A stretch of DNA of 64,000 bases. Origin: Candidatus Nomurabacteria bacterium. Its GTDB lineage: Bacteria; Patescibacteriota; WWE3; UBA101185; UBA10185. The DNA is taken from NCBI GenBank assembly GCA_020631855.1, contig JACKGU010000001.1, positions 39,601-103,600 of the forward strand, in the 5' to 3' direction. The notes beneath the pieces were generated by a model. It did no database searches and was not told the DNA's origin. It was given only the letters and a program-made list of their open reading frames with translations. The position numbers were made by a program, and so were the translations under genes. This document shows, one piece after another, positions 11,171-64,000 of the stretch (its first letter is position 1; every line of letters starts with the position of its first letter).

Positions 11171-11296
11171 GGTTTATAATTTCGTTACTTAAAACTATTT
11201 GCGTTAGCTAGTAGATGCAGTTTACCCACCATGTTGGGCTTTGCAACTTAAAGAAATTATAGCAAATCACCTGCGTAAGCTGATGGTGGTTGATTC
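11171..11296 (+). repeat. dispersed intergenic repeat, copy A (about 125 bp, 3 hairpins)
   Basis: Near-identical copies at 21078, 36311, 39658, 51984 and 53979 (partial); consensus ttataatttcgttacttaaaactacttgcgtaagctagtagatgtagtttacccaacatgttgggctttgcaacgtaaagaaattacagcaaaccacctgcgtaagctggtggtggttgat. Confidence 0.85.
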
Positions 11297-14533: not shown

Positions 14534-14593
14534 AACCACCCCCCCCCTTATAAAAAATAGTTTCTAAAGTTGGGGTTTTATAGTCGAGCCGGA

Positions 14594-16576: not shown

Positions 16577-16650
16577 AGCGGGGTGGAGGAATAGTACCTC
16601 GTCAGGCTCATAATCTGAAGGTCCCGGTGCAAATCCGGGCCCCGCCACCA
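16577..16650 (+). tRNA. tRNA with CAT anticodon, initiator-like (tRNA-fMet candidate), CCA encoded
   Basis: Manual fold: acceptor AGCGGGG/CCCCGCC with an unpaired A1.C72, D stem GAGG/CCTC with A11:T24 (an initiator hallmark), anticodon loop CTCATAA, T stem CCCGG/CCGGG with loop TGCAAAT; 74 nt. Confidence 0.55.
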
Positions 16651-16828: not shown

Positions 16829-16905
16829 GCCAACGTAGCTCAGTCGGTTAGAGCGGGCGTTTCATACGCGCCAGGTCGCTGGTTCGATTCCAGCCGTTGG
16901 CACCA
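16829..16905 (+). tRNA. elongator tRNA-Met (CAT), or tRNA-Ile2 (lysidine) if the C34 is modified
   Basis: Manual fold: acceptor GCCAACG/CGTTGGC with G1:C72, D stem GCTC/GAGC (C11:G24), anticodon loop TTCATAC, T loop TTCGATT, CCA; 77 nt. Confidence 0.75.
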
Positions 16906-21077: not shown

Positions 21078-21203
21078 AAATTTACAATTTCGTTACTTGA
21101 AACTACTTGTCTAAGCTAGTAGATGTAGTTTACCCAGCATGTTGGGCTTTGCAACGTAAAGAAATTACAGCAAATCATTTGCTTGAGCAGGTGATGGTTG
21201 ATA
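21078..21203 (+). repeat. dispersed intergenic repeat, copy B
   Basis: Aligns over its full length to copy A with about 85% identity. Confidence 0.85.
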
Positions 21204-36224: not shown

Positions 36225-36310
36225 TAAATAATTCTCGCATATTTACCGCAAAGTTAAAATAACATATATTTTACATCTCTGTAGAGGCATCTTCAGTGGG
36301 TTAGGCAAGG

Positions 36311-36427
36311 GCTTTATAATTCAAAACTACTTGCGTAAGCTAGTCGGTGTAGTTTACTCGACATGTTGGGCTTTGTAGCTTAAAGAAATTACAGTAAAAC
36401 ACTTGCGTAAGCCGGTGGCGGTTGGTT
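36311..36427 (+). repeat. dispersed intergenic repeat, copy C (8-nt deletion near the 5' end)
   Basis: Aligns to copies A and B; abuts the recF stop codon. Confidence 0.8.
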
Positions 36428-39657: not shown

Positions 39658-39783
39658 TGAATTTATAATTTCGTTACTTAAAACTACTTAATTAAGCTAG
39701 TAGCTGTAGTTTACCCAATATGTTGATCTTTGCAGCGCAAAGAAATTACAGTTTGCCACCTGCATGGGCTGGTGGTGGTTGAT
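39658..39783 (+). repeat. dispersed intergenic repeat, copy D
   Basis: Aligns to copy A; lies in a divergent promoter region. Confidence 0.85.
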
Positions 39784-39843
39784 TTGCATAAAATATTCAA
39801 CAAGTTGTTGCATGTTTGTGTTTTATTAGGTTAATATAATTCT

Positions 39844-45959: not shown

Positions 45960-48305
45960 TTAGTAGTTTGCGATGCTAAAACTTGTTCCCAAAGCCTTGT
46001 TTGTGTGTGTGGGTTTTCTATTTGGGTTGTATCTTATATACACTTCTTGTGGCGTTTCGTAATTACCTTCAAAGTCTACGGCCATTGTTTGTATTGCATA
46101 AGAACCGGGTACCTCAAGACTCACAGAAGACCCTGTATACTCTTTCCATTCCACCTCGCCTCCAATTTTATAATATATTTTATCGGCAACTTCATTTGTT
46201 GTGACAGTAAAGTTTGTCGGTCCAACAAACCAGCCATTAAGTGGGTTTGTGCTAAGCATTGCAATCGATCTTGGGGCTTGTATGTCATATTTTTCGGCAA
46301 GAACAGAAAAAGCCGAAAACGAAGAAGTATGTGCTGTGATGATTTTGTTTATAGGATCAAAGACCGAATCTAATATTTCCCATATCTGTTCTTCGGCGTT
46401 GAAGTGGTAGATAGCCATTGTGTCAGCATTATAGTTAGCTAAATCCACACCGTTTAGCTGAATGGTAATGGTTGCGGGCGCAGTAATCTCGTAAATTTTT
46501 TTACCTAAGGTATCAATAATATCAATAACTGTTCCGGTTTTAGGTACGGGATAAAGGTTTTCCGGAGTTCTGCCTACAGGCCCTAGAGGGCTTAGCCGAA
46601 TTGTTACTCCGGACTTTGTAGCGTTTTGGGGCAGTTCTAATGATCGGTTATAGTAGCTTACTTGTACTTCGGCGTTGTTTGTAAATTTTGTGCTGGGAGA
46701 GAAATCTTCCTTCCATAGATACGGACTCACAGTTCCTTTATGTGCTCCCAGTACGTCTTGCCAAGAAAAATTAGGCCACGGATCTTGTATGTAATCCGCC
46801 CACCAAGAAAAAGGATCAATAAAGCCGTCGGGAATATCGTCTGCAAAACTGTTGTTATTATTTTTATCTTTGAGTACGGCTAAATGCAAATGTGGGCCGG
46901 TGGTTTTTCCGCTCAGCCCTACGTAACCAATAACTTCGCCCTCATTTACATGGATAGGGGAGCTGGAACTTGTAAACAGACCCTCGCCTTGTAAGTGCAT
47001 GAAGATCGTTTGATATCCGTTTAAGTGGTCTATTTTTATTGTGTGCCCACAGCTGTTGCAGAAATAGTAGGTCGCATTACCTTCAGCAGGTGCTTTAATC
47101 GGTGTTCCAAAAGCAAGTTTAAAATCAATGCCGTTGTGCCCGGAGTAGTACTCAAAGGGCTGCTTGTCCCTTATACCCATAAAGTTCAGAATCGTATCTT
47201 GTCTGGATAACGGCTCCTCGTAGAAACCATACCCCAGAAAAGGGTATTCATGATCAAAATACGATGTTATAAGATCAAGAGGAATATCTTCGGTATTTTG
47301 TATTTCGAAAGGCAGGGATAGAAATTTACTATTATAGTCGTTCTGCTCTATTTTATATTTTTTTAAGCCCTGTTGGTAGTGTGTCCCTAGCAGGAGCTGT
47401 GGCGCTGAGTACACGTGCGTTAGTTTATCAACCTTTGTTATAGTATTCCCTGAAGTGCTCTCCCAGCCTTCGTCAACACCACTTTTCTTAAAGACAAACG
47501 CGTTTCCGTAGATATCGTTTACAGCAACGTAGAGATTCTCATTTATTACAATCATGTCTTTGACCGCATATCCGTCAAAAAAGCTGTCGTAGCTCCACAC
47601 GTCTGTGCCTGATACTAAGTATCGTAGCCCCAAATAGTCATCACCAGCATAAGTCCTGTTTTCATATTCTGCGAAACTCGATATTCTTCTATTCCTAAGG
47701 CCAATTATCTCTTCCCATGTATGGCCGTTGTCGGCTGAAAAATAATTATTGCTGGCCATAGAAATATAGATTTTTTCTCCTATCATGCTGATGGAGAAAA
47801 TTGTCTTTGTGTTAGTTTCGTCCGGCATTGGTCGTTCCCAGTTTTGCCCTTTATCAAAAGAAAAATATGCCCCGTTGTACCTCTTGCCCACAATAATTAG
47901 ATTTTCTTTTGCCTTTATAATCCCGCCTGAAAAAGGAAAAACGTCTGATAGATGTTGCCACGTGTACCCGCCGTCAGAAGATGCAAAGATCCCGCCGGTT
48001 CCGTCAATTTCGAACGCGGTAGTGGCGTAAATTGTGTTTATTCCATCGAAAGACATTGTGGTAACCCCTCTCCCTTCAAGTCCGTTTGTTTTTATCCATG
48101 TGTTTCCTAGGTCGTGACTTACGTAAATTCCATTATATGGATTAAGCCATATTCTATCGTCGAACTCTCCCGCTATTAATCCGTAGGGGGTGTTGATAAT
48201 GTTTTTGATTTTGGGATCCAGCTGTTCCCAACTTTCAGACGCAAGCAAATTATTATTAAGGCTAAGTAGCATAAAGGCTATAACACAGATTGCTATATTT
48301 TTCAT
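45960..48305 (-). CDS. large secreted protein with BNR/Asp-box repeats and an M23 (LytM-type) metallopeptidase domain
   Basis: Signal peptide; repeated SxDxGxTW (SHDLGNTW, SSDGGYTW, SFDKGQNW, SADNGHTW); M23 motifs HNGIDF...HLHL. Confidence 0.6.
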   Translation of the reverse strand: MKNIAICVIAFMLLSLNNNLLASESWEQLDPKIKNIINTPYGLIAGEFDDRIWLNPYNGIYVSHDLGNTWIKTNGLEGRGVTTMSFDGINTIYATTAFEIDGTGGIFASSDGGYTWQHLSDVFPFSGGIIKAKENLIIVGKRYNGAYFSFDKGQNWERPMPDETNTKTIFSISMIGEKIYISMASNNYFSADNGHTWEEIIGLRNRRISSFAEYENRTYAGDDYLGLRYLVSGTDVWSYDSFFDGYAVKDMIVINENLYVAVNDIYGNAFVFKKSGVDEGWESTSGNTITKVDKLTHVYSAPQLLLGTHYQQGLKKYKIEQNDYNSKFLSLPFEIQNTEDIPLDLITSYFDHEYPFLGYGFYEEPLSRQDTILNFMGIRDKQPFEYYSGHNGIDFKLAFGTPIKAPAEGNATYYFCNSCGHTIKIDHLNGYQTIFMHLQGEGLFTSSSSPIHVNEGEVIGYVGLSGKTTGPHLHLAVLKDKNNNNSFADDIPDGFIDPFSWWADYIQDPWPNFSWQDVLGAHKGTVSPYLWKEDFSPSTKFTNNAEVQVSYYNRSLELPQNATKSGVTIRLSPLGPVGRTPENLYPVPKTGTVIDIIDTLGKKIYEITAPATITIQLNGVDLANYNADTMAIYHFNAEEQIWEILDSVFDPINKIITAHTSSFSAFSVLAEKYDIQAPRSIAMLSTNPLNGWFVGPTNFTVTTNEVADKIYYKIGGEVEWKEYTGSSVSLEVPGSYAIQTMAVDFEGNYETPQEVYIRYNPNRKPTHTNKALGTSFSIANY

Positions 48306-48615
48306 TCTATTATAGTAAGAAAATATTCGGAAATACCAACTTGCATTGTATATTATAAGTAGATTTTATTTTAAAAGTAATTTACCACAATAGTTGCTAA
48401 TATTGATAAAAAGAGGGGCACTATTTGATTTCTATAATAAAAGATTGATGCCGTCTAGGATAGGCCAGTATTACTTGGGAGTAATAAATTTACTCACAAT
48501 GAATAGTTTTAGACATTTGGGCCTATAGATAAGAGGGATATTTAACTTTTTTTCCTCGGTGCCGTTCGTATCATTTTTGCTTTTACTTGTTATAAAGTTT
48601 ATAATTCAAGGCAAC

Positions 48616-49947
48616 ATGTTAAGTCTATCCAAAATTTACTCTAGCAACCCCGATCTAAGAAAAGCTCAAGTCAAAGGACTTCTTTTTTTATTAAACTCCG
48701 AAGACTCTATTTCTAATAATGAGCTGGTTCAACGAACCGGTCTTTCCAAAGAAGTTTTAAAAACATTTAAAGAATCAATTTCTTCAATATTAATAAAAAC
48801 AACTGCTGATGAGCTAGCATTGACGAAAGTCGGCAGGGAGGCTGTTGGGGAGATGAATCCGGAACCCTATTCTTGGACCTACTTAAGCTTTAGCTTTGAT
48901 GCTCTAATGTTGCAGGCGCTTGAAGCTATAAAAGCTATACGGGAAGGGCAGCAGCAATTTGTGGCAAAGAGAGAGTTTGACCAGTTTTTTTGTACTCCTG
49001 AAACTTCGATACTTAAGGCAAAAGCGATTCTAAATAAAGTCGGTGGGTCTGAAGGTGTTAGCATTGCTTTGATGGGGGATGATGATTTGGTTTCAATATC
49101 ATTGGGATTGTTGGACCGGGCTGTAGAAGAAATAATCGTTTTTGATGTAGATAAAGATGTTCTGTCTCTAATAAAGGAAAAGGCTGAGGAATTAAAAATT
49201 ACCTCCATAAAAACCGTTTTATACGACGCAAGAGATGATCTTCCAAAAGACATGGTCGCACGATTTGACGCAGTGCTGACTGATCCGCCGTATACAAGAC
49301 CAGGAGTAGCCGTGTTCCTAGATAAGTGCATTACATTATGCAAAAAAGCTACTACATATGCGGGGCCATATATATTTTTTTGTTATGGTAACGGCCTGCG
49401 CGACCCTTTAAAAGGGCTTAAAGTTCAAGATATTATTCTTAGCAGAAACTTGTTGATAGAGGAAAAAATATCAACATTTAACAGATATGACGGGGCGGAA
49501 ATAATTGGAAGCTCCAGCGATTTGTTTGTATTGAAGGTTTTAGAAACAACGGAAGTTCTGGAGGATTACACCGGTACAGAGATTTACACTTATGAGAATA
49601 CCGAGATAGAGGATTTCCCATACGTAGATCATTATGTTTTTAAGTTATATAAGGTTCCTTCGCACGTTGTTACCTCTAAAAAAACATTGCAGAAGAATAT
49701 AGGCGTTTTTTGTAAATGGCATGGCTTAAACGTTGTTGACACTAAACTAACGAGATTTAAGGGAGGGGGATTCAGCTTCACGTACATACTTTCAACTTCA
49801 AATCTTCTTGTCCATACGTGGCCTGAAAAAAGGGCCCTCCATATAGATCTCATAACCTGCTCTCCCATTAAGAAGAAGCACCTGCTCTTAAAGAATTTAT
49901 CTGATCTGTTTAGTACTATGTCCGTAGAAATCAGAAAAATTGAATAG
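48616..49947 (+). CDS. fusion of a BpsA/DUF43-like aminopropyltransferase-fold domain with an AdoMet decarboxylase (SpeH-like) domain
   Basis: LMGDDDLVSISLG and LTDPPYT (DUF43/BpsA-like); C-terminal FKGGGFSFTYILSTSNLLVHTWPE...IDLITCS matches the pyruvoyl AdoMetDC core; the start is moved to the ATG at 48616 because the upstream 19 codons are hydrophobic and unsupported. Confidence 0.45.
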   Translation: MLSLSKIYSSNPDLRKAQVKGLLFLLNSEDSISNNELVQRTGLSKEVLKTFKESISSILIKTTADELALTKVGREAVGEMNPEPYSWTYLSFSFDALMLQALEAIKAIREGQQQFVAKREFDQFFCTPETSILKAKAILNKVGGSEGVSIALMGDDDLVSISLGLLDRAVEEIIVFDVDKDVLSLIKEKAEELKITSIKTVLYDARDDLPKDMVARFDAVLTDPPYTRPGVAVFLDKCITLCKKATTYAGPYIFFCYGNGLRDPLKGLKVQDIILSRNLLIEEKISTFNRYDGAEIIGSSSDLFVLKVLETTEVLEDYTGTEIYTYENTEIEDFPYVDHYVFKLYKVPSHVVTSKKTLQKNIGVFCKWHGLNVVDTKLTRFKGGGFSFTYILSTSNLLVHTWPEKRALHIDLITCSPIKKKHLLLKNLSDLFSTMSVEIRKIE

Positions 49948-50202
49948 AGGTGTCTCAAGGAGCTCGAAAACAACCAGCATTACTATAGCTTTATTCACAG
50001 TAAAAAATACTCAAAAAAACAGCGCGAACTATTTGACTTTATAATGGTTAGTTGGTATGTTTGGTTCTGCACATATTGCTTTAGGGTAATTATGTGGTGG
50101 TTTAAGTAGACTCATGTTAGCATAAGCCACACAAATCCAACCCGCACTTTAAAAAACAAATAGTTAAAGTTCGATGAATTTAAGGTGAAAAGAATGATTT
50201 CT

Positions 50203-51678
<1,476 letters not shown>

Positions 51679-51983
51679 TAAAGGAAACAAAACGTGACGA
51701 TAGAAAGCGTAAACTTGTCAAAGATACATGAATTTGTGTTTGCGAAAGTCCGCTGTAATATCGCACCTTCTACATCTGATTAGTTCTAGGATGTAGACAG
51801 TAAAAGTTTGCACGTACCTCGCAGCAAACGAGAACAGGTTTGAAGATGAGCCTAAATCTTCGAGTGAATCATTCTTTTTACCTTATAGATATCGAACTTT
51901 AAAGACCATACTACTTTTATTTACAGAGATAGCGGTGCGAACCTTTTTGTAAAAGCATCGAAAGAAGCGATTTAAAGGAACAT

Positions 51984-52107
51984 GCTTTTATAATCTCGTT
52001 ACTTAAAACTACTTGTGTAATCTGGTAAATGTAATTTACCCAACATTTTGGGATTTGCAGTGCAAAGAAATTAAAGTAAACCACCTGCGTAAGCTGGCGG
52101 TGGTTGA
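51984..52107 (+). repeat. dispersed intergenic repeat, copy E (inside the 16S-23S spacer)
   Basis: Aligns to copy A. Confidence 0.85.
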
Positions 52108-52271
52108 TAATTAACAAAGTTTTTTTATGGTGTATACTTGAAGCATGCAAGGTGGTTTTAGAGAAGGTGGTCGGAACCTAATAACAGACAAAGCTGTTGA
52201 AGAAGCTAGTGTTATTGTCGGTTCTCTAGAGATGAAATTAAGCAATCTTCACGTAAAGGCTGAAGTTGAAG

Positions 52272-52733
52272 ATGGGGGGGGATATTAATGCCCATGCAGC
52301 CGTTCTCGACCAACTTGGCCAATCGGCGGTAGCGGAAAATCCAACAGCCTTGGAAGAAGCTGCAGAAGGTGAGGCAGCAGGTCTTGTAGGTCAAGCGCTT
52401 GATGGTATCGGTGTACATGAAATTATTGTTAATCTCGAAGAAATAGCCGTCCCAACAACCCCTGACACGTATATGTCAGATGCTGTTAGAGAGCAAAGAA
52501 TGAATGCGGCGGCGGGCCTAGTCGTTTCTGCTCTGACTGAACAAGGCTGGCTTGTACACCCTAATAACCCCTTGGGCGTGTCTCAGTCCGGTCTTCGAGC
52601 AAATGAAGCTTTATCAGCTGAGCTGGGTCTTCGGCCAAGGGCTCCGGATGCGGCTCCTGATTCCCTAAAAAGATTTGTGGTCTTTTTCAAGGTAAGCCTA
52701 ATTTATGCGGAGCCAGATGCTCCTAGTGCTTGA
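52272..52733 (+). CDS. GC-rich ORF of uncertain coding status (Ala/Gly/Glu-rich, 153 aa) inside the rRNA spacer
   Basis: ORF track; GC content around 55-57% against a genome near 38-40%; no homology recognised; a G8 run at 52274-52281. Confidence 0.2.
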   Translation: MGGDINAHAAVLDQLGQSAVAENPTALEEAAEGEAAGLVGQALDGIGVHEIIVNLEEIAVPTTPDTYMSDAVREQRMNAAAGLVVSALTEQGWLVHPNNPLGVSQSGLRANEALSAELGLRPRAPDAAPDSLKRFVVFFKVSLIYAEPDAPSA

Positions 52734-52814
52734 TTATCTTAATTGAATACCACAAAGTCTTTCTTGTTTACTTATGGCTGCATACTTTGTAATGTTTTTC
52801 GTAGGCAAAGCTAT

Positions 52815-53705
52815 TTAGTTTTTTGTTTTGAAAAAATACTCCCTCATTTTTATTGTTTTTCTAAGACCTTCGTCAAGAGTTGTTAGTGGTGACCATCCTA
52901 GATTTTTTGAAGCTTTTTCATACCTAACGCTCAGAAAGCATTCCTGTTTCGGTCTATCATTTGAAGTTGGCTTTTGCTTTTGAAGCCGCTGTCCGGGTTT
53001 TTTATTGTCGATTTTCATTAGCTTCGATATAGTTTCTTGTAACTGCCCGTTGTTTAATTGCAGGCCTGCCCCGATGTTAAAAATTCCTTCGCAGTCTTTT
53101 TCTATAGCTTTTACGTATGCGTCAATGTGATCATCGATAAAAATAAAATCTCTCACATCTAGAGGCTGTTTAATTTTAGGATCATTTTTATTTAGTAATG
53201 AGTCGATGATGTATTCTATTAGGTAAAATCCGGCCCCTTCTCGTCCATAGGTATTGGCAGTTCTCATTATAACCATTTTGACGTCAGGCATCGCTTGTGC
53301 AAAATATTCAATTACTCTTTCTGCGTTTTGTTTGCTTAGCCCATATGGTGATGATGCTGGTCCTAGCTCTAGTGTTTCTGAAAAAGGTTCATTTGAGTTC
53401 TGATAGCCGTATACCTCCATCGAGCCCGCAAAAACGAGCTTTGCTGTATTTATGTCTTGAGAGCCCTTTAGGTTTTTTATTGCTGATAGGAGTTTGAATG
53501 TTCCTATCTCATTAGTTTGTAAGTATTCCTCAGGAAAATTGAACGAAAGCCCTCCTGACGATAGCGCTGCTAAATGAACTATAACTTCTGGATTCGCTTC
53601 TTTTATGGCGTTTTCCATGGATCTTTGATTATTGAGATCTGCGACAAAAAGCTTTGCCTGGGCCGGGACTTTAAGGAGGTCAATATTGCTATTGATCCTA
53701 TGCAT
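52815..53705 (-). CDS. NAD-dependent epimerase/dehydratase (extended SDR) with an interrupted N-terminus
   Basis: YxxxK-type SDR core. In frame and directly upstream (53706-53798) lies KKIFITGITGFIGKRLAQRLIEQGYEVSG, the Rossmann motif, but with no start codon. An ATG at 53795-53797 is out of frame by one, next to an A7 homopolymer. Confidence 0.65.
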   Translation of the reverse strand: MHRINSNIDLLKVPAQAKLFVADLNNQRSMENAIKEANPEVIVHLAALSSGGLSFNFPEEYLQTNEIGTFKLLSAIKNLKGSQDINTAKLVFAGSMEVYGYQNSNEPFSETLELGPASSPYGLSKQNAERVIEYFAQAMPDVKMVIMRTANTYGREGAGFYLIEYIIDSLLNKNDPKIKQPLDVRDFIFIDDHIDAYVKAIEKDCEGIFNIGAGLQLNNGQLQETISKLMKIDNKKPGQRLQKQKPTSNDRPKQECFLSVRYEKASKNLGWSPLTTLDEGLRKTIKMREYFFKTKN

Positions 53706-53818
53706 GCCGCTTACTTCATACCCTTGTTCTATTAATCTTTGTGCTAATCTTTTACCTATGAAGCCGGTAATGCCGGTTATAAAAATCTTTTTTTCATATT
53801 TTGCTGATGTTTAACGGA

Positions 53819-53895
53819 TGGTGGGTCTGGATGGACTCGAACCATCGACCTTTCCCTTATCAGAGGAACGCTCTAACCGCCTGAGCTACAGACCC
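53819..53895 (-). tRNA. tRNA-Ile (GAT), CCA encoded, on the strand opposite the rRNA genes
   Basis: Reverse complement GGGTCTGTAGCTCAGGCGGTTAGAGCGTTCCTCTGATAAGGGAAAGGTCGATGGTTCGAGTCCATCCAGACCCACCA; anticodon loop CTGATAA. Confidence 0.85.
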
Positions 53896-53978
53896 CCAAA
53901 CCTTTCATGATTTGAAAGTATTGGCCTATCATAGCAAGGTTTAAAATATTTTTCAAACTTGAGGTTTTTAATTTTTTT

Positions 53979-54034
53979 CCTTTGCAACGTAAAGAAATTA
54001 CAGCAAACCGCCTGCGTAGGCTGGTGGCGGTTCA
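53979..54034 (+). repeat. dispersed intergenic repeat, copy F (3' half only)
   Basis: Aligns to the 3' two hairpins of copy A; the CCGCC/GGCGG stem shows compensatory change relative to CCACC/GGTGG in other copies. Confidence 0.75.
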
Positions 54035-54241
54035 TAGTTGACACGCCTCAGCCAACGTGTTAACTTACTCTCACCAAATACTCCAACTTCTACCTTAGGG
54101 TTTAAAGTTTGGTAGGTTACAGTTTTTGTAATCTCCGACGGAAGCTCTGATTCCAAATAATATTAATAGTTTATGTGTATGGATCTGAAACGGGTTCATA
54201 TGATAATATGTTTTTGCTTTCGCACAAACGTGTTTGCGTAT

Positions 54242-54317
54242 GGGCCTGTAGCTTAGTTGGCAGAGCGCTACATTTGCAATGTAGAGGTCACGGGTTCGAC
54301 TCCCGTCAGGTCCACCA
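54242..54317 (+). tRNA. tRNA-Ala (TGC), CCA encoded
   Basis: GGGCCTGTAGCTTAGTTGGCAGAGCGCTACATTTGCAATGTAGAGGTCACGGGTTCGACTCCCGTCAGGTCCACCA; G3:U70 identity pair present. Confidence 0.9.
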
Positions 54318-54484
54318 AACTATATAGATAATCTTTATCTAGGTACTTTGAAAACTGAACGAAAAACAATGTTAGTTCAACATGAGAATCAAGTACTTTG
54401 TTGTCGCAAGACAGCAGGGTAGTTTAATTCTTGAAGTTCCGTGTTTACACGGAACACAACGTCTTAGTATTAGAAATATAAAAA

Positions 54485-57505
<3,021 letters not shown>

Positions 57506-57605
57506 TATATTTCTTATAAGATGTTGCGTTGTCTACATTTGTTTTTTGTTCAGTTTTTAGAGTACCTACTGTTAGGTAGGTATTCTAAATTTAGTTTGTG
57601 GTCAG

Positions 57606-57721
<116 letters not shown>

Positions 57722-57815
57722 GCCCGCAAACTTTTATCCTTCTGGATAAATTTCACGTTTTTATGCGTTTTAGTGAGCTAAAGTATTAAGTTAAAATGCA
57801 AACCCATTTATTTTT

Positions 57816-58925
57816 ATGCCACAAGCAAGAAAAATTTCAAACCCAAGCCCTGTAATGGACTCATTACTTGGAAAAGCTGGAGCAAATTTAAAACAATACG
57901 CTTACGGAGAGTTAGTTGAAGGCGTTGTTGTAAGTGTAACTCACAGCGAAGTATTATTAGACCTTGGAGCAAAATCCGAAGGTATTATTACAGGAGAAGA
58001 ATTACAAGACTCTGATAGATCCTACAAAAGCCTTAAAGTAGGGGATACCGTTTTGGCCATGGTTGTTCAGGCTGAAAACGATCAAGGTTACATTGTGCTC
58101 TCGTTAAAAAGAGCAGAAAAAGATAAAAAATGGAAAACAATTGAAGACGCTTTTGATACCGAATCTGTACTTGAGGTACAGGTTCTGGAGTATACAAAAG
58201 GCGGATTGCTTGTTGACTGTTTAGGCTTAAGAGGTTTCGTGCCTCTATCTCATCTTGATCGCGTGCATTTTGCAAACGACCTTGCTAAAACAGCAGGCGG
58301 GAGCGAGACTGAGCTCAAAGAATCACTAAAAGTTTTAGCTGGAAAAACATTAAAGGCTAAAGTTATTGAGCAGGACAGATTAAAAAATAGGCTCGTATTA
58401 TCTGAAAAAGACGCAACCGCAGCTTACAGCGACGAGGCCAAAAAAGAACGGCTCGACAACATTAAAGAGGGTGATGAGCTGGATGGTATCGTTACCGGAG
58501 TTATGCCTTTTGGCTTATTTGTAGACCTAGAAGGCGTAGAGGGCCTGGTTCATATAAGCGAAATTGCCTGGGAAAAAGTTAGCAGCCCGGCCATGTATTA
58601 TAAAGTAGGTTCTCCGATTCATGTAAAAGTGTTAGGTATAGATGAAGAATCTCAAAAATTAGCTCTAAGCGTTAAGAGATTAATTAAAAACCCATGGGAT
58701 GGTGTAGAAGACAGATATCCTATTGGATCAAGGATAACAGGCGTAGTTAGCAAAATAGTACCCTTTGGTGCTTTCGTCACTTTAGAGAAAGGTTTGGATG
58801 GTTTAATTCATGTTTCCGAGGCCGCTGGGCCACTAAATGTGGGCGATGAGGTAGAGGCAGTAATTACAAATGTTGATGGTGAAAAGCAAAAGCTTGCATT
58901 AAGCACCAGGCTCATCTCTAATTAG
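57816..58925 (+). CDS. rpsA: 30S ribosomal protein S1 (short, 4 S1-domain form)
   Basis: Repeated S1 OB-fold motifs (GxVxG...G.F) four times; 369 aa. Confidence 0.75.
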   Translation: MPQARKISNPSPVMDSLLGKAGANLKQYAYGELVEGVVVSVTHSEVLLDLGAKSEGIITGEELQDSDRSYKSLKVGDTVLAMVVQAENDQGYIVLSLKRAEKDKKWKTIEDAFDTESVLEVQVLEYTKGGLLVDCLGLRGFVPLSHLDRVHFANDLAKTAGGSETELKESLKVLAGKTLKAKVIEQDRLKNRLVLSEKDATAAYSDEAKKERLDNIKEGDELDGIVTGVMPFGLFVDLEGVEGLVHISEIAWEKVSSPAMYYKVGSPIHVKVLGIDEESQKLALSVKRLIKNPWDGVEDRYPIGSRITGVVSKIVPFGAFVTLEKGLDGLIHVSEAAGPLNVGDEVEAVITNVDGEKQKLALSTRLISN

Positions 58926-58930
58926 TAACT

Positions 58931-61255
58931 ATGTCATTAGATAGGCTAACAAACAGAGCAAAAGCTTTGATTACAGAATTGTCTGAAGGCGGGGACTACG
59001 TCCCCGCCTTAGAAATATACAAAGCAATCTACAGCTCATCTGGCTTGGGTGGTATCATTGCCCGCCAGTTTCCAAAAATTAAAATCGATAAAGATTTATC
59101 AATTAACCTAAACTCTCTACTCAAAGAAGCTTACTACCAGGCCTCAAAAATGGAGCATTTGTATGTAGGTACTGAGCACTTACTTCTAGCATTATTAAAG
59201 ATAGCCAAACATAAAGATTTCAAAACAGTTGCAAATCATCTTCAGAGCTCAAATATTTTTCCTAAAGCCATGAAAATGCTTTCCGATAAAAAGGAGAATG
59301 TCATTCTTAATTCCTTTGGGTCTAACTTAAACAGAACCGCCGTGAAAAAATCTTCCAAACAGGTGGTTAGAAAAGCTGAGCTCGATAAACTTATTGCCAT
59401 TTTACTCAAAAAGAGCAATGCAAACCCCTTAATTGTCGGAGAGTATGGGGTGGGGAAGCAGTCTCTTGTCGACTCTTTGGTCGAGAGTATCAACTCTCTT
59501 GAAGTACCGACATTTTTAGCGGGCTATCAAATATATGAATTTGATCTTATGGCTTTTGCTTCAAGCATATTAAATAAGGGAGGTCTTGAGCTAAGCCTCT
59601 CTGCGTTACAAGAAGAACTTAAAGGTTTAAATAGGGCTATTATTTATATAAAAAATTTCCAAAATCTCTTTATTTCAACAAGCTCAGGCATGGGCGTGCC
59701 TTTAATTTACCCTATGTTTAAAGACCTGTTGCAAAATTCAGGCATCAATTTTATTGCAACTTTGCACTCCTCGTTGTACGAAAAACTAGCCGTAGACAAC
59801 TCCTTTATTTTAGATAGTTTTACCGTTTTGGATGTTAATGAGCCGTCAGAGGAAGAAACAATTCAAATATTAACCCATGAAGCCAGAATGCTGGAAACTT
59901 TTCACGGTGTAAGGATATCCTCAGAAGTCATAAAATATATTTATGACAGTGCAAAAAGCCTGCAGATGGACACCTTCTTCCCGCAAAAAGGCGTTGATCT
60001 TTTAGACGCGTCGTGCGCGTATGTTTTGGTTTCCGAAAACAGAGTCCCAAAAGATTACAAAGATCTTGTAGATCAGACCGTTATTTTATATGGGAAAATG
60101 GATAAAGCTGTTAGTGCCGGTACCTATGAGCAGGCTCTCAAAATTCAGACCAAGCTGGACTCTCTTGAAAAAAGACTTTTAAAATATGAAAAATCAATGA
60201 TTTCTTCGCAAGAGGTCGAGGTAACAAATGTTGCAGTTGACGAGACTCTGCGATCACTGAATTTAAAGAAAAAAGAACACGAGTTATTAGATAAAGATAA
60301 ATTATCAAACCTTTATGAGCAAGTGAGAAAAGAAATTATTGGTCAGGATCAGGCGGTCGAAAGCGTAGTTAAGGCCCTAATAAGATCGGGTTTAGGTCTT
60401 AGGCCCGGAAACAGGCCGATTGGAAACTTCTTTTTTCTTGGTCCGACCGGTGTAGGTAAAACAGAACTCGCAAAAGTTTTGGCGAGGGAAGCTTTCGAAG
60501 ATGACGGTAAGAGCCACCTGATAAGGTTGGATATGAGTGATTTTAGCGAAAAGCACACGGTAGCAAGGCTGGTTGGAGCACCCCCGGGGTACGTAGGATA
60601 CAGTGACGGTGGAGAGCTTACATCAAAAATAGAATCCCAGCCCGACAGCGTTGTTTTGTTTGATGAGATTGAAAAGGCCCACCCTGATGTTTTAAATATT
60701 CTGCTACAGATCATGGAGGAGGGGGAGTTGGTTGATGCAAAAGGAAACACTTTTGAGTTTGATAAGGCCGTAATAATTTTAACAAGCAATCTTGGCACAG
60801 AGATACTTCATGGTCGTGAAATAGGCTTTAAAGATTCAGGAAGTACAGCAAGCGACAGTGATGTTGAAAAAAACTTAAAACAAAACCTCAAAAAAATACT
60901 AAAGCCCGAGTTAATTAACAGGTTTGATGAGATCGTGGTTTTTAAACGACTGAGTAAAGATGATCAAATGAAGATACTTAATTTGCTACTTACTAAGGTT
61001 AATGAGCAGGTAAGGGAGCAAGATGTTACTTTGCATGTTTATCGCTCTGCAAAGAAGCATTTGCTTGAGCTAGGATACTCTCAAGAATATGGGGCACGTT
61101 CCCTAAGACGTGTTGTAGAAAAAGAATTACTTGATAGAGTAGCGGAGATATTACTTGCCACTAAAAAAAGGCCGATCAAAATATCTATCCGCGCTCATAA
61201 AGGAAAGTTAACCGCTACCTCGACTTTTCAGAGAAAAAGCACCCGTAAAAATTAG
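58931..61255 (+). CDS. clpC: ClpC-like AAA+ chaperone ATPase with a degenerate first nucleotide-binding domain
   Basis: Clp N-domain (HLYVGTEHLLLALL); D1 Walker A reads GEYGVGKQS with Q in place of T/S; D2 is intact (GPTGVGKTELAK, sensor VLFDEIEKAHPDV); synteny with radA and the yacL-like gene. Confidence 0.7.
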   Translation: MSLDRLTNRAKALITELSEGGDYVPALEIYKAIYSSSGLGGIIARQFPKIKIDKDLSINLNSLLKEAYYQASKMEHLYVGTEHLLLALLKIAKHKDFKTVANHLQSSNIFPKAMKMLSDKKENVILNSFGSNLNRTAVKKSSKQVVRKAELDKLIAILLKKSNANPLIVGEYGVGKQSLVDSLVESINSLEVPTFLAGYQIYEFDLMAFASSILNKGGLELSLSALQEELKGLNRAIIYIKNFQNLFISTSSGMGVPLIYPMFKDLLQNSGINFIATLHSSLYEKLAVDNSFILDSFTVLDVNEPSEEETIQILTHEARMLETFHGVRISSEVIKYIYDSAKSLQMDTFFPQKGVDLLDASCAYVLVSENRVPKDYKDLVDQTVILYGKMDKAVSAGTYEQALKIQTKLDSLEKRLLKYEKSMISSQEVEVTNVAVDETLRSLNLKKKEHELLDKDKLSNLYEQVRKEIIGQDQAVESVVKALIRSGLGLRPGNRPIGNFFFLGPTGVGKTELAKVLAREAFEDDGKSHLIRLDMSDFSEKHTVARLVGAPPGYVGYSDGGELTSKIESQPDSVVLFDEIEKAHPDVLNILLQIMEEGELVDAKGNTFEFDKAVIILTSNLGTEILHGREIGFKDSGSTASDSDVEKNLKQNLKKILKPELINRFDEIVVFKRLSKDDQMKILNLLLTKVNEQVREQDVTLHVYRSAKKHLLELGYSQEYGARSLRRVVEKELLDRVAEILLATKKRPIKISIRAHKGKLTATSTFQRKSTRKN

Positions 61256-61413
61256 CAGCTAGCTGGGGTTTTTTTTCGTCATTACAGTCCAAAATTATTT
61301 TTTTGCTCCATTATCTGATCTATAACGGTATTGTAGCCTTCGTCTGGAGCACGATAACTTATTTAACTAGACGCTTTTACTTAATAGTTTTCTTAGTATA
61401 GTACAATTAATTT

Positions 61414-62751
61414 ATGGCAAAACAGAAATCAGTTTACATCTGTCAAAGCTGTTCATATCAGAGTCCAAAATGGATGGGACAATGCACCGAGTGTGGTGAA
61501 TGGAATACCTTTGAAGAAAGTCTTGTTGCACAAAACAATCCTCGCGGTTCGAAAATGAACTCAGGTGGGGTTGTTAAGCCTTTCTACCTTTCTCAAGTAA
61601 AGGCCTCTCAACTAAACAGATACAAGATAGGAATATTAGAATTTGATAGGGTTTTAGGTGGGGGTTTTGTTCCAGGCCAGGTGATTTTATTAGCCGGAGA
61701 GCCCGGTATTGGTAAAAGCACTCTGCTCACACAGCTGGCTAAAACACTCCAACAGGACAAGTCGGAGGTTATTTATGTGTGTGGGGAGGAAAGCCCCTCT
61801 CAGGTCAAAATAAGAGCCGAGAGAATGGACTATTCGGCCGATAACTTATTAGTGATGACCGAAACCAACACTGATACGATAGTTGAGTCAGTTCGTGGCG
61901 CGTGCCTTGGTAACAAATCTGTAAAGCTGATCATAGTCGACTCTATACAAACTCTTTCTAGCTCCCAGTTGATGGGGGTTTCGGGGTCTGTGGGGCAGGT
62001 TAGGTTATCCGCCGGCATGCTGTCCTCTTTGTCTAAGGAGCTTGGTATTCCGTTAATTATTGTAGGCCATGTTACAAAAGAAGGTACGGTTGCAGGCCCT
62101 AAGGTTCTGGAGCACATGGTTGACACCGTGTTGTATCTCGAAGGCGATAACCAGCATATGTTTAGAGTATTAAAGACTACAAAAAACAGGTTCGGCCCTG
62201 TTTCTGAGGTCGGTTTATTTGAGATGCGTGAGGGCGGTCTTATGGAAGTATTAAATCCCTCTGAGCTTTTTTTGAGTAACGTGGGGAATAGCATACCGGG
62301 CTCTTGTGTAACCGTAGTAATGGAGGGCTACCGCCCCTTGCTTTTTGAGGTGCAGGCGTTAACTTCTAAAACGTCTTTCGGCTATCCTAGAAGAACTTCA
62401 AGTGGTTATAGCAATAATAGGTTGCAAGTGTTAATCGCAGTGTTGGAGAATAGATGCGGGATAAATCTTTCTAATCACGATGTATACGTAAATGTTGTGG
62501 GCGGGTTGAAAATTGACGATTACGGAGCTGATTTAGCAGTGTGTTTGGCTATTGTGTCTGCAGTAAAAGGCCTTGCTTTATCTAAATCTACGGCCGCTTT
62601 TGGCGAGATCGGGCTGCTTGGTGAAATAAGAGCAGTATCTAACGAAGGGAAAAGACTTTCGGAAGCAAAAAAGCTGGGCTATACTAATGCACTGTCTTCG
62701 AGTTCCGAGAAACAGCTGAAAGTTTTAATTTCGAAACAGTTTAAAAAATGA
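61414..62751 (+). CDS. radA: DNA repair protein RadA/Sms
   Basis: N-terminal zinc finger CQSCSYQSPKWMGQCTECGEW, Walker A AGEPGIGKSTLL, and a Lon-like C-terminal domain. Confidence 0.9.
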   Translation: MAKQKSVYICQSCSYQSPKWMGQCTECGEWNTFEESLVAQNNPRGSKMNSGGVVKPFYLSQVKASQLNRYKIGILEFDRVLGGGFVPGQVILLAGEPGIGKSTLLTQLAKTLQQDKSEVIYVCGEESPSQVKIRAERMDYSADNLLVMTETNTDTIVESVRGACLGNKSVKLIIVDSIQTLSSSQLMGVSGSVGQVRLSAGMLSSLSKELGIPLIIVGHVTKEGTVAGPKVLEHMVDTVLYLEGDNQHMFRVLKTTKNRFGPVSEVGLFEMREGGLMEVLNPSELFLSNVGNSIPGSCVTVVMEGYRPLLFEVQALTSKTSFGYPRRTSSGYSNNRLQVLIAVLENRCGINLSNHDVYVNVVGGLKIDDYGADLAVCLAIVSAVKGLALSKSTAAFGEIGLLGEIRAVSNEGKRLSEAKKLGYTNALSSSSEKQLKVLISKQFKK

Positions 62752-63731
62752 GCCCGCTAATAAAGTTAAGTGAAATTACAAAAAGAAGAGGCAAAAGAGG
62801 ACTTAAGTTTATTGTAAGATTTACAATAGGTTCGGCGTTTTTTATTGTCTGCTTGAATTTTTCCAATTCGGTCTTTTTTAATGAGAACCCTTTATTTGGG
62901 GTTAATTTCTTAGCAGAAGTTGTAATATCGAGCGTAGGTGCTCTCATTGGCTTTTTTTTAATTCCTGATTACTTTTTTAAGCTTCGGCGTTGGATTGAGC
63001 AACTAGTTTCAAAAATAGTATTCGAGTTAGTATCTGATTTTTGGAATCAATATAACCAAAAAATGGAAATGACAAGAAAAAATCGGGCCATGAATGCCAA
63101 GAAAAAAAAGAATAAGCAAAGTAACCAAAAAGAGGCCGATAAAGTTAGAGGAGGTACCTTATTAGATACTTCGGTTTTGATAGATGGGCGTATTTTGAAC
63201 ATAGCGAAGAGCGGTTTTATAACCGGTCTTCTAGTTGTTCATAAAAGCGTCATATCTGAGCTACAATTGTTGGCTGACAGCGAAGATGTAATGAAAAGAA
63301 AAAAGGGAAGGCGGGGGCTGGACGCGCTGAACGAACTTAAAAAATATACCAAAGTTGCTGTTATAAGACAAAATTATAAGACAAATAAGGTAGATGACGT
63401 GCTAGTTGCTGCTGCCAGCGAGTGCAGACTAAAGATAATGACGCTGGACTTTAATCTTAAAAAGATCGCTGAAGTACAAAATATAAAAGTTTTAAACATT
63501 AATGAGCTGGTCGAGGCTGTTAAACCGGACTATATTCCGGGCGATACCTTAAGCATAAAAATTGTTCAGGAAGGTAAAGAGAAGGATCAAGGGGTAGGTT
63601 ACTTAGATGACGGCACTATGGTGGTTGTTTCAAATAGTTCAGATATGGTCGGCTCAGTTGTTGAGGTCGAGGTTTCAAAGCTCATTCAAACTGCCGCAGG
63701 AAAAATGGTTTTTTGTGACAAAATAAAATAG
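62748..63731 (+). CDS. YacL-like membrane protein with PIN and TRAM domains
   Basis: N-terminal TM helices, a PIN domain (LLDTSVLIDGRI), a C-terminal TRAM-like beta barrel; conserved position after radA as in Firmicutes. Confidence 0.65.
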   Translation: MSPLIKLSEITKRRGKRGLKFIVRFTIGSAFFIVCLNFSNSVFFNENPLFGVNFLAEVVISSVGALIGFFLIPDYFFKLRRWIEQLVSKIVFELVSDFWNQYNQKMEMTRKNRAMNAKKKKNKQSNQKEADKVRGGTLLDTSVLIDGRILNIAKSGFITGLLVVHKSVISELQLLADSEDVMKRKKGRRGLDALNELKKYTKVAVIRQNYKTNKVDDVLVAAASECRLKIMTLDFNLKKIAEVQNIKVLNINELVEAVKPDYIPGDTLSIKIVQEGKEKDQGVGYLDDGTMVVVSNSSDMVGSVVEVEVSKLIQTAAGKMVFCDKIK

Positions 63732-63785
63732 CATTATCGCGGATTTCAAGCAAAAATATCGGCTTTTTGGTATATAATACACGCA

Positions 63786-64000
63786 TGTTTATATCTAGTC
63801 TTCAAAATAAGACTATAAAAGAGGTTTCAAAACTCAAAAATAAAAAATATAGAGACAAGGCGTTGCTAGTACCTGTGGAAGAATTGCAATCAATTGCTTT
63901 TGCTATGCAGAACGGCTTCACTATAGCAAAGGTTTTTTATTGCCGGAGCATTTTAAACATAAAGTTTGGAGATCTTCAGGCCTTGGATATGTTTGTAAAG
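63786..64000 (+). CDS. TrmH/SpoU-family RNA 2'-O-methyltransferase, N-terminal fragment (truncated by the window end)
   Basis: MFISSLQNKTIKEVSKLKNKKYRDKALLVPVEE resembles the substrate-binding N-terminal domain of RlmB/TrmH proteins; no stop codon within the window. Confidence 0.4.

Follow-up and report, generated by a model that had tools for sequence, protein, structure and literature searches.

An unlinked rRNA locus with an inverted tRNA-Ile gene in a WWE3-like member of Patescibacteria, probably inherited rather than produced by a repeat-driven insertion

The stretch of DNA analysed here (the window) comprises 64,000 nt of contig JACKGU010000001.1 (positions 39,601–103,600 of the forward strand; NCBI assembly GCA_020631855.1), from a genome labelled 'Candidatus Nomurabacteria' at NCBI. 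Its 16S, 23S and 5S rRNA genes lie on the plus strand in canonical order, as judged by Rfam coordinates, and the 16S–23S spacer (51678–54477, Rfam boundaries) is 2800 nt long. This spacer holds an orphan open reading frame (ORF; gene X), an extended short-chain dehydrogenase/reductase (SDR) gene and a tRNA-Ile gene, both on the minus strand, as well as one full and one half copy of a ~122-nt repeat. Most probably, the arrangement is an 'unlinked' rRNA locus inherited within, and typical of, its clade (WWE3-like Patescibacteria; candidate phyla radiation, CPR) and not a recent repeat-driven insertion. The scaffold shared within the clade starts with 16S and a variable slot, continues with a minus-strand tRNA-Ile(GAT) and usually a cofD gene, and ends with tRNA-Ala, 23S, 5S and rpsA.

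Anatomy, conservation and assembly of the locus

The features of the locus, in the order of their positions, are as follows.

50164–50199, plus strand: 5' arm of the 16S processing stem, a 36-nt inverted repeat, 86% complementary to 51867–51902
50200–51677, plus strand: 16S rRNA gene (Rfam RF00177, 1387.7 bits, full model)
51867–51902, plus strand: 3' arm of the 16S processing stem, closing ahead of repeat copy E and the cargo genes
51987–52109, plus strand: repeat copy E, full unit (nhmmer 120.8, model positions 2–123)
52145–52733, plus strand: gene X, orphan ORF of 195 codons, split by a +1 frameshift at a run of eight G (G8, 52274–52281)
52815–53797, minus strand: extended-SDR NAD-dependent epimerase/dehydratase gene (Pfam PF01370, E=1.5e-47; PF16363, E=9.8e-50)
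53819–53895, minus strand: tRNA-Ile(GAT), CCA encoded (ARAGORN; Rfam RF00005, 71.2 bits)
53980–54036, plus strand: repeat copy F, 3' module only (profile search, model positions 67–123)
54142–54148, plus strand: AAGCTCT core of a conserved block upstream of tRNA-Ala (invariant columns in 12 of 12 aligned WWE3-like loci)
54242–54317, plus strand: tRNA-Ala(TGC) (Rfam, ARAGORN)
54340–54369, plus strand: 5' arm of the 23S processing stem, pairing with 57539–57568 (30 nt, 90% complementarity)
54468–54487 with 57499–57518: inner helix of 23S (20 nt, 95% complementarity)
54478–57510, plus strand: 23S rRNA gene (Rfam RF02541, 2543 bits)
57609–57717, plus strand: 5S rRNA gene (Rfam), followed by the ribosomal protein S1 gene (rpsA, 57816–58925)

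After 16S, the spacer thus reads stem 3' arm, repeat E, gene X(+), SDR(−), tRNA-Ile(−), half repeat F and tRNA-Ala(+). The tRNA-Ile gene is antisense to the rRNA genes and lies 21 nt upstream of the SDR ATG, and only 346 nt separate it from tRNA-Ala. The 5S gene also has its own flanking stem, and the stems of 16S, 23S and 5S are separate from one another. Rfam, ARAGORN and Pfam therefore bear out the anatomy described in the original prediction, which had been made from the sequence without database searches: a 2.8-kb spacer with a minus-strand protein gene, an inverted tRNA-Ile and two repeat copies. No group I or group II intron was matched by Rfam in the spacer insert.

Relatives were collected by a scan with the S1 protein, keeping one genome per species, which gave 34 loci with 63–77% identity. 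Their labels are WWE3, Patescibacteria or, where third parties did the annotation, Saccharibacteria; the closed genome RAAC2_WWE3_1 is represented among the loci. In contrast to the NCBI name of the genome, its closest relatives by S1, 16S and 23S bear the label WWE3. For each locus a stretch of 10 kb was fetched, in which rRNAs were mapped by BLAST and tRNAs by ARAGORN. In each of the ten WWE3-like relatives whose locus extends far enough upstream (L009, L011, L015, L024, L027, L030, L033, L036, L038 and L039, the last being RAAC2_WWE3_1, CP006914), a minus-strand tRNA-Ile(GAT) precedes tRNA-Ala(+), 23S, 5S and rpsA. The 16S–23S gap is 1.9–3.7 kb in each of the five relatives with 16S in view (L009, L011, L015, L036 and L039); their 16S identity to the window is 80–92%, and 80–87% for full-length 16S. 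A canonical compact spacer, or an empty site, was found in none of the relatives, which instead carry the inverted tRNA-Ile and other genes at this position. Searches of about 470 kb from WWE3 relatives returned no copy of the repeat. Because they are common to relatives that lack the repeat, the inverted tRNA-Ile and the kilobase-scale gap can be taken as ancestral and, on this comparison of loci, are long-standing features of the clade. In relatives, the 23S genes (L015 6421–7215; L024 4993–6002 and 6560–7396; L036, L038, L039 and others) contain insertions of 0.3–1.4 kb at sites matching positions ~2074/2075 and ~2634/2635 of the window 23S, which itself has no insertions.

The genes held within this scaffold differ from one genome to another. 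In most relatives a cofD/yvcK-family gene (~330 aa, plus strand) lies between tRNA-Ile(−) and tRNA-Ala(+); it was identified in L039 by PF01933 (E=6e-85), and most of the others have similar ORFs of ~330 aa. No cofD is present in the 64 kb of the window, and the L011 locus also lacks it. The interval between 16S and tRNA-Ile contains NUDIX, histidine phosphatase (His_Phos), Mur-ligase-like, TPR or unknown ORFs, depending on the genome, and no homologue of the SDR or of gene X was found at the locus of any relative. The comparison that the original prediction had proposed thus gave a divided answer: no relative has a spacer with only the two tRNAs. The alternative it had named, an ancestral unlinked layout without repeats in the relatives, closely describes the shared scaffold and does not extend to the cargo, which only this lineage and its sister have.

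The arrangement was recovered repeatedly and independently. Positions 47816–64000 are 100% identical to a 520-kb contig of NCBI assembly GCA_020631805.1 and to a 175-kb ENA contig (ERZ27248703). Contigs from JGI 3300010350, ENA ERZ27257475 and NCBI GCA_035593565.1 cover 49272–55733, and a contig from Logan SRR14234040 covers 51635–55119, all at 99.9–100% identity. Furthermore, a sister lineage (L041, Logan ERR14173692), with 86% DNA identity to the window, has the same order of 16S end, stem arm, repeat E, gene X ORF and SDR 3' end, and the 3' arm of the 16S stem is 100% conserved in it. A chimeric join across conserved rRNA in a metagenome-assembled genome is a practically negligible explanation, even though some assemblies of the same population break within 23S (L003–L006 begin at window positions 55270–57639), because the entire gap from 16S into 23S is bridged at 99.9–100% identity by no fewer than six independent metagenome assemblies of different projects, the sister lineage shares the order of genes, and the closed RAAC2_WWE3_1 genome has the same scaffold. 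One of the covering contigs (L049, JGI 3300010350), otherwise 99.9% identical, differs by six substitutions within 21 nt in the intergenic region between gene X and the SDR gene (window 52793–52813).

Transcription of the locus

Promoters and terminators were called as consensus matches and are predictions. Three promoter-like sites bear on the layout of the window.

50033–50061, plus strand: upstream of 16S, TTGACT-17-TATGTT with TG before the −10 element (consensus scan)
52104–52131, plus strand: at the 3' end of repeat E and just ahead of gene X, TTGATA-16-TATGGT (consensus scan)
53928–53956, minus strand: upstream of tRNA-Ile(−), TTGAAA-17-TGcTATGAT with a TG extension, 10/12, sigma-70-type

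The locus most likely works as four separate transcription units. The first would be 16S, read from a promoter of its own and enclosed by a processing stem that closes at 51902. The second would be the orphan ORF gene X on the plus strand, behind repeat E. The third would run on the minus strand from the sigma-70-type promoter at 53956–53928 and include tRNA-Ile and then, 21 nt downstream, the solitary SDR gene. The fourth would be tRNA-Ala-23S-5S, again with its own processing stems. For L015 and L039 the scan also places a site equivalent to that of the third unit (TAGACT-17-TGnTAGAAT) upstream of tRNA-Ile(−), and in L024, L027, L036 and L038 such a site was read by eye. Moreover, terminator-like hairpins with A and T runs occur between 16S and tRNA-Ile in relatives (L015 2698–2727; L039 442–481 and 1983–2018; L011 4642–4655), and both L015 and L039 have a promoter-like TTGAAA-17-TAAACT site upstream of tRNA-Ala. 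Separate transcription of 16S and of tRNA-Ala-23S-5S is the best reading of the promoter and terminator matches, their recurrence in relatives and the self-contained processing stems; it is from these that we infer which transcripts are made and where they end. To that extent, two expectations of the original prediction appear to hold, namely that 16S and 23S are probably not parts of one uninterrupted precursor and that tRNA-Ile and the SDR gene would be read antisense to the rRNA genes.

Several observations weigh against the reading of the locus as an inherited set of separate units. Half of the ten relatives have no 16S inside the fetched 10 kb, and their 16S–23S distance may be larger. 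Gene X and the SDR gene are restricted to this lineage and to L041, which means that the site has undergone some insertion or replacement. The number of promoter-like sites in the window region (11) is close to the shuffle expectation (9.9). In the window, neither a convincing intrinsic terminator, be it between 16S and the convergent gene X/SDR pair or between these two genes, nor a well-supported promoter for tRNA-Ala-23S was found, and for this reason read-through from 16S, or co-transcription with antisense interference, is still live.

The last of these points would be accounted for by a single operon, in which one long transcript runs from the 16S promoter through 23S and 5S, with tRNA-Ile and the SDR gene transcribed antisense against it. 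Consistent with this, the three rRNAs and tRNA-Ala share one strand and the canonical order and are only 2.8 kb apart, there is no clear plus-strand terminator between 51902 and 54242, and no well-supported promoter lies directly upstream of tRNA-Ala. However, the promoter-like site that recurs in relatives points in the opposite direction inside the spacer, relatives have terminator-like hairpins after 16S, two of them (L015 and L039) have the TTGAAA-17-TAAACT sites ahead of tRNA-Ala, and the 16S processing stem already closes 190 nt past 16S. On balance we regard a single long transcript as unlikely.

The AAGCTCT core is found 50–130 nt upstream of tRNA-Ala in the window and in L009, L011, L015, L024, L027, L031, L033, L036, L038, L039 and L040, and many of these 12 aligned loci have an additional TACGGAATGG...TACCTTCC block upstream of it. 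The block could be a leader or an antitermination-type element. Its designation as a boxA antiterminator would be a guess only and was not adopted: a similar motif was not found in the 16S leader, and a promoter-like site lies downstream of the block in L015 and L039.

The genes that flank the locus include, besides rpsA, those for a Clp-type ATPase, radA, a sortase and rho. Directly upstream of 16S (48559–49947) is a gene in which the C-terminal domain of a BpsA-type branched-chain polyamine synthase is fused to S-adenosylmethionine decarboxylase (PF01861 and PF02675). Elsewhere in the window, the plus strand has a pair of tRNA-Met(CAT) genes separated by 180 nt (16577–16650 and 16829–16905), which are presumably some mix of initiator, elongator or tRNA-Ile2(CAT) types.

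The genes carried in the spacer

Each lineage has a different gene in the slot that extends from 16S to the 3' side of tRNA-Ile(−). The gene that lies 21–43 nt downstream of tRNA-Ile(−) on the same strand differs in four genomes: the window has an SDR, L024 a Mur-ligase-like gene, L033 a His_Phos gene and L038 an unknown ORF. In tRNA-associated genomic islets, variable genes are located at the 3' side of tRNA genes, and the present slot is similar in this respect. It differs in that there is no integrase and no duplication of a tRNA 3'-end attachment site, and in that each locus holds one or two genes.

The SDR protein has a full-length Pfam match beginning at KIFITG (PF01370 positions 1–240 of 240) and intact GxxGxxG (GITGFIG) and YxxxK (YGLSK) motifs. 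Its ATG (53795–53797), however, is one base out of frame because of a run of seven A (A7) at 53788–53794 on the gene strand. Three-frame translation gives, in the SDR frame, a stop codon that is followed by no ATG, GTG or TTG ahead of the Rossmann motif; the sole canonical in-frame start would yield a truncated product of 296 aa. With eight A in place of seven, the protein would start with MKKKIFITG. The A7 run is present in every assembly that covers the SDR start, and annotators have placed the start at ATT or ATA. On the gene strand the start reads ATG AAA AAA AGA TTT TTA TAA, and a −1 slip at the A run would likewise give MKKKIFITG...; the start could thus be slippage-dependent or reflect a plain frameshift mutation. 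The gene may be expressed, by slippage at the A run or from a non-canonical start, or may be a young pseudogene. At its 3' end, where 45 codons are comparable, the ratio of nonsynonymous to synonymous substitution rates (dN/dS) against the sister lineage is 0.115. The nearest homologue is 38% identical and is located inside a glycan-biosynthesis cluster, whereas the SDR gene of the window is solitary.

Gene X occupies what the original prediction had described as a GC-rich segment near 55% GC with a weak ORF. The GC content of the segment is about 50%, lower than that figure, and the ORF is there, although as 195 codons split by the G8 run into pieces of 47 aa and 153/155 aa. Deletion of one G restores the 195-codon ORF from the ATG at 52145. 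This is the sole G run of eight or more in the 64 kb; the longest run of G or C in the window is a C9 homopolymer at 14539–14547. GC at codon positions 1, 2 and 3 of gene X is 0.69, 0.46 and 0.37, and the excess is at position 1, owing to a product rich in Ala, Gly, Glu and Val. The value at the third position (GC3, 0.365) equals that of neighbouring genes, and this coding-type periodicity with native GC3 argues against foreign high-GC DNA. A structured RNA was also considered and rejected: Rfam matches were at chance level, single-sequence folding gave a z-score of −0.4, and a two-sequence comparison gave 11 compensatory pairs against 9.2 ± 2.5 in column shuffles.

The sister lineage L041 has an intact homologue of gene X (475–1071; 198 aa) that is 54% identical. 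In the alignment with the sister, the ORF is ~76% identical and the flanks are 95–100% identical; dN/dS between the two ORFs is 1.55. Along the alignment, the gene forms a sharply bounded island of divergence in which runs of perfect identity alternate with scrambled stretches, for which allelic replacement or diversifying selection are possible explanations. Gene X has no Pfam match. A word-indexed search with its protein returned only itself and the sister, as did a HMMER search of 1.84 billion representatives, apart from a weak match to a PKD-repeat protein (E=2.9e-5) whose score is inflated by five repeat stretches. The AlphaFold model has a mean predicted local distance difference test (pLDDT) score of 35.6 and no confident fold. 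Gene X is not a recognizable remnant of cofD or of the spacer ORFs of relatives, since tblastn found nothing. As for a target of a diversity-generating retroelement, the window repeat search found no template-like copy of gene X, a result that does not include a reverse transcriptase scan of all ORFs. In sum, gene X is best regarded as a lineage-restricted and rapidly evolving ORF, broken in this population.

Each of the eight contigs retrieved for the split form has the G8 run. An exact look-up of the in-frame protein with seven G (G7) found it in two Logan contigs. Because both have homopolymer indels elsewhere, including a change of GGGG to GGG in the conserved 3' end of 16S, the G7 calls are probably read errors, and phase variation at G8 is not supported. 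Both cargo genes are damaged at homopolymers, gene X at G8 and the SDR gene at the A7 run of its start, and therefore look dispensable or decaying.

A more elaborate scenario would make the slot beside the inverted tRNA-Ile of WWE3-type rRNA loci a dedicated gene-capture site, in which every lineage places another accessory gene 21–43 nt behind the tRNA, under the strong and conserved tRNA-Ile promoter. In the present lineage the cargo would be tuned by homopolymers: slippage at A7 would restore the SDR start MKKKIFITG..., G8 would switch the fast-evolving gene X, and the two-module ~122-nt repeat would be a hitherto undescribed structured RNA or mobile element of the lineage. We consider this scenario doubtful.

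The ~122-nt repeat and the locus in context

The repeat unit of ~122 nt (TTTATAAT...GGTGGTTGAT) is present in the window as five full copies and the half copy F, all on the plus strand, and a 21-base invariant pattern of the unit has six matches in the window against 0.00 expected.

Window, plus strand: repeat copies at 11173–11295, 21081–21203, 36305–36427, 39662–39784, 51987–52109 (E) and 53980–54036 (F)
Other contigs: repeat copies at L042 5140–5381 and 1578–1647; L043 4524–4648; L044 6186–6308; L041 337–459

Outside the window the repeat is thus found in the sister contig, where copy E occupies the same place with 91% identity, and in three contigs of another metagenome (ERZ795048), among them a tandem pair and a copy consisting of the 5' half only (L042). 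It is built from two modules that resemble each other and both carry a ...CYTGCGTAAGCYRG... hairpin with a GNRA cap (GTAA), and it has neither terminal inverted repeats nor an overall palindrome. Seven of the 11 copies lie 4–55 nt past the stop codon of a co-oriented gene, and most copies, in the window as well as in the ERZ795048 contigs, are at unrelated intergenic loci. The repeat has no Rfam match, and it was rejected as a convincingly structured RNA: z-scores of minimum free energy range from −0.7 to −2.3, the RNAalifold covariation term is +0.74, and double changes occur in 2 of 31 pairs.

ERIC, RUP, BOX and REP/BIME are short dispersed intergenic repeats, and the ~122-nt unit is similar to them in being intergenic and multicopy, with hairpin modules and tandem and half copies, and in its usual position just after a co-oriented gene. 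It differs by having no Rfam match, terminal inverted repeats or palindrome, by the single orientation of its six window copies and by its occurrence, in what was searched, only in this lineage, the sister contig and the three contigs of the other metagenome. The repeat therefore behaves like a dispersed, lineage-specific intergenic element, with no apparent tie to the origin of the split locus.

The original prediction had attributed the arrangement to a repeat-associated insertion or rearrangement. In that case the segment 52109–53979 would have been inserted or inverted by recombination between repeats, flipping tRNA-Ile and importing the SDR gene. E and F are indeed direct copies that bracket the segment, the SDR gene and gene X are lineage-specific, and cofD, which in most relatives occupies the place where F now sits, is missing. 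Moreover, F is cut exactly at the module boundary; given that F retains the 3' module only and the L042 copy the 5' half only, the element does break or recombine at this boundary. However, tRNA-Ile is on the minus strand in 10 of 10 relatives and the rRNA genes are split in 5 of 5, with the repeat in none of them, and L011 lacks both cofD and the repeat. The bracketed segment is not a single inserted unit, because it contains the ancestral tRNA-Ile. Most copies of the repeat sit at unrelated intergenic sites. No transposase, integrase or homing-endonuclease gene is present in the insert, whose two ORFs are the SDR and the orphan without a Pfam match. Furthermore, a Poisson estimate for six copies in 64 kb predicts about 0.8 adjacent pairs within 1.9 kb, so that two copies at this distance are about what chance predicts. 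Insertion or inversion mediated by the repeat is thus very improbable, and inversion of tRNA-Ile by repeat recombination is largely refuted. In the preferred reading of an inherited unlinked locus, the two copies would be members of a lineage-specific intergenic repeat that happen by chance to lie here.

Compared with a canonical rrn operon, the window retains the order 16S, tRNA-Ile(GAT), tRNA-Ala(TGC), 23S, 5S and separate processing stems for 16S and 23S, but tRNA-Ile is inverted, the spacer holds two protein-coding ORFs and transcription probably involves more than one unit. In Brewer et al. 2020 (bioRxiv 10.1101/705046), 16S and 23S genes are linked if they are 1500 bp or less apart, a limit exceeded by the 2800 nt of the window, and linked pairs have an average spacer of about 0.42 kb. 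Unlinked 16S and 23S genes are described there as widespread in Patescibacteria, and Lui et al. 2021 (PMC8172020) report them in 27 of 34 closed CPR genomes. According to these two studies (PMC8172020; bioRxiv 10.1101/705046), unlinked rRNA genes with genes between them that lie on the opposite strand are common and clade-specific in CPR. In the type D class of PMC8172020, the two genes share a strand, are separated by more than 2 kb and have opposite-strand genes between them. The window has this layout, with 16S and 23S on the same strand, 2800 nt apart, and tRNA-Ile(−) and SDR(−) between; it further resembles the class in belonging to a small CPR genome and in being conserved within its clade (tRNA-Ile in ten relatives, the gap in five). 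The difference is that both studies, in the accessible text, classify by distance and strand, without the WWE3 scaffold of inverted tRNA-Ile with its own promoter, cofD and tRNA-Ala-23S-5S-rpsA. The accessible text and supplements of Lui et al. 2021 (PMC8172020) contain no WWE3 genome, 23S goes unmentioned in the original paper on the RAAC2 genome, and a literature search returned no description of the WWE3-specific scaffold.

Unlinked rRNA in CPR has already been published, and general knowledge of such genes is unchanged by this locus, which provides a concrete, well-assembled and clade-wide example of how the rRNA operon is split in CPR. Annotation pipelines may mislabel the cargo genes, as illustrated by the ATT and ATA starts given to the SDR gene, and in this group amplicon or long-read typing across 16S, the internal transcribed spacer and 23S will meet a gene-containing 'spacer' of 2–4 kb. 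The break is not a random one: an inverted spacer tRNA, apparently with a promoter of its own, has been kept in that orientation across WWE3-like genomes whose 16S genes are only 80–87% identical to that of the window.

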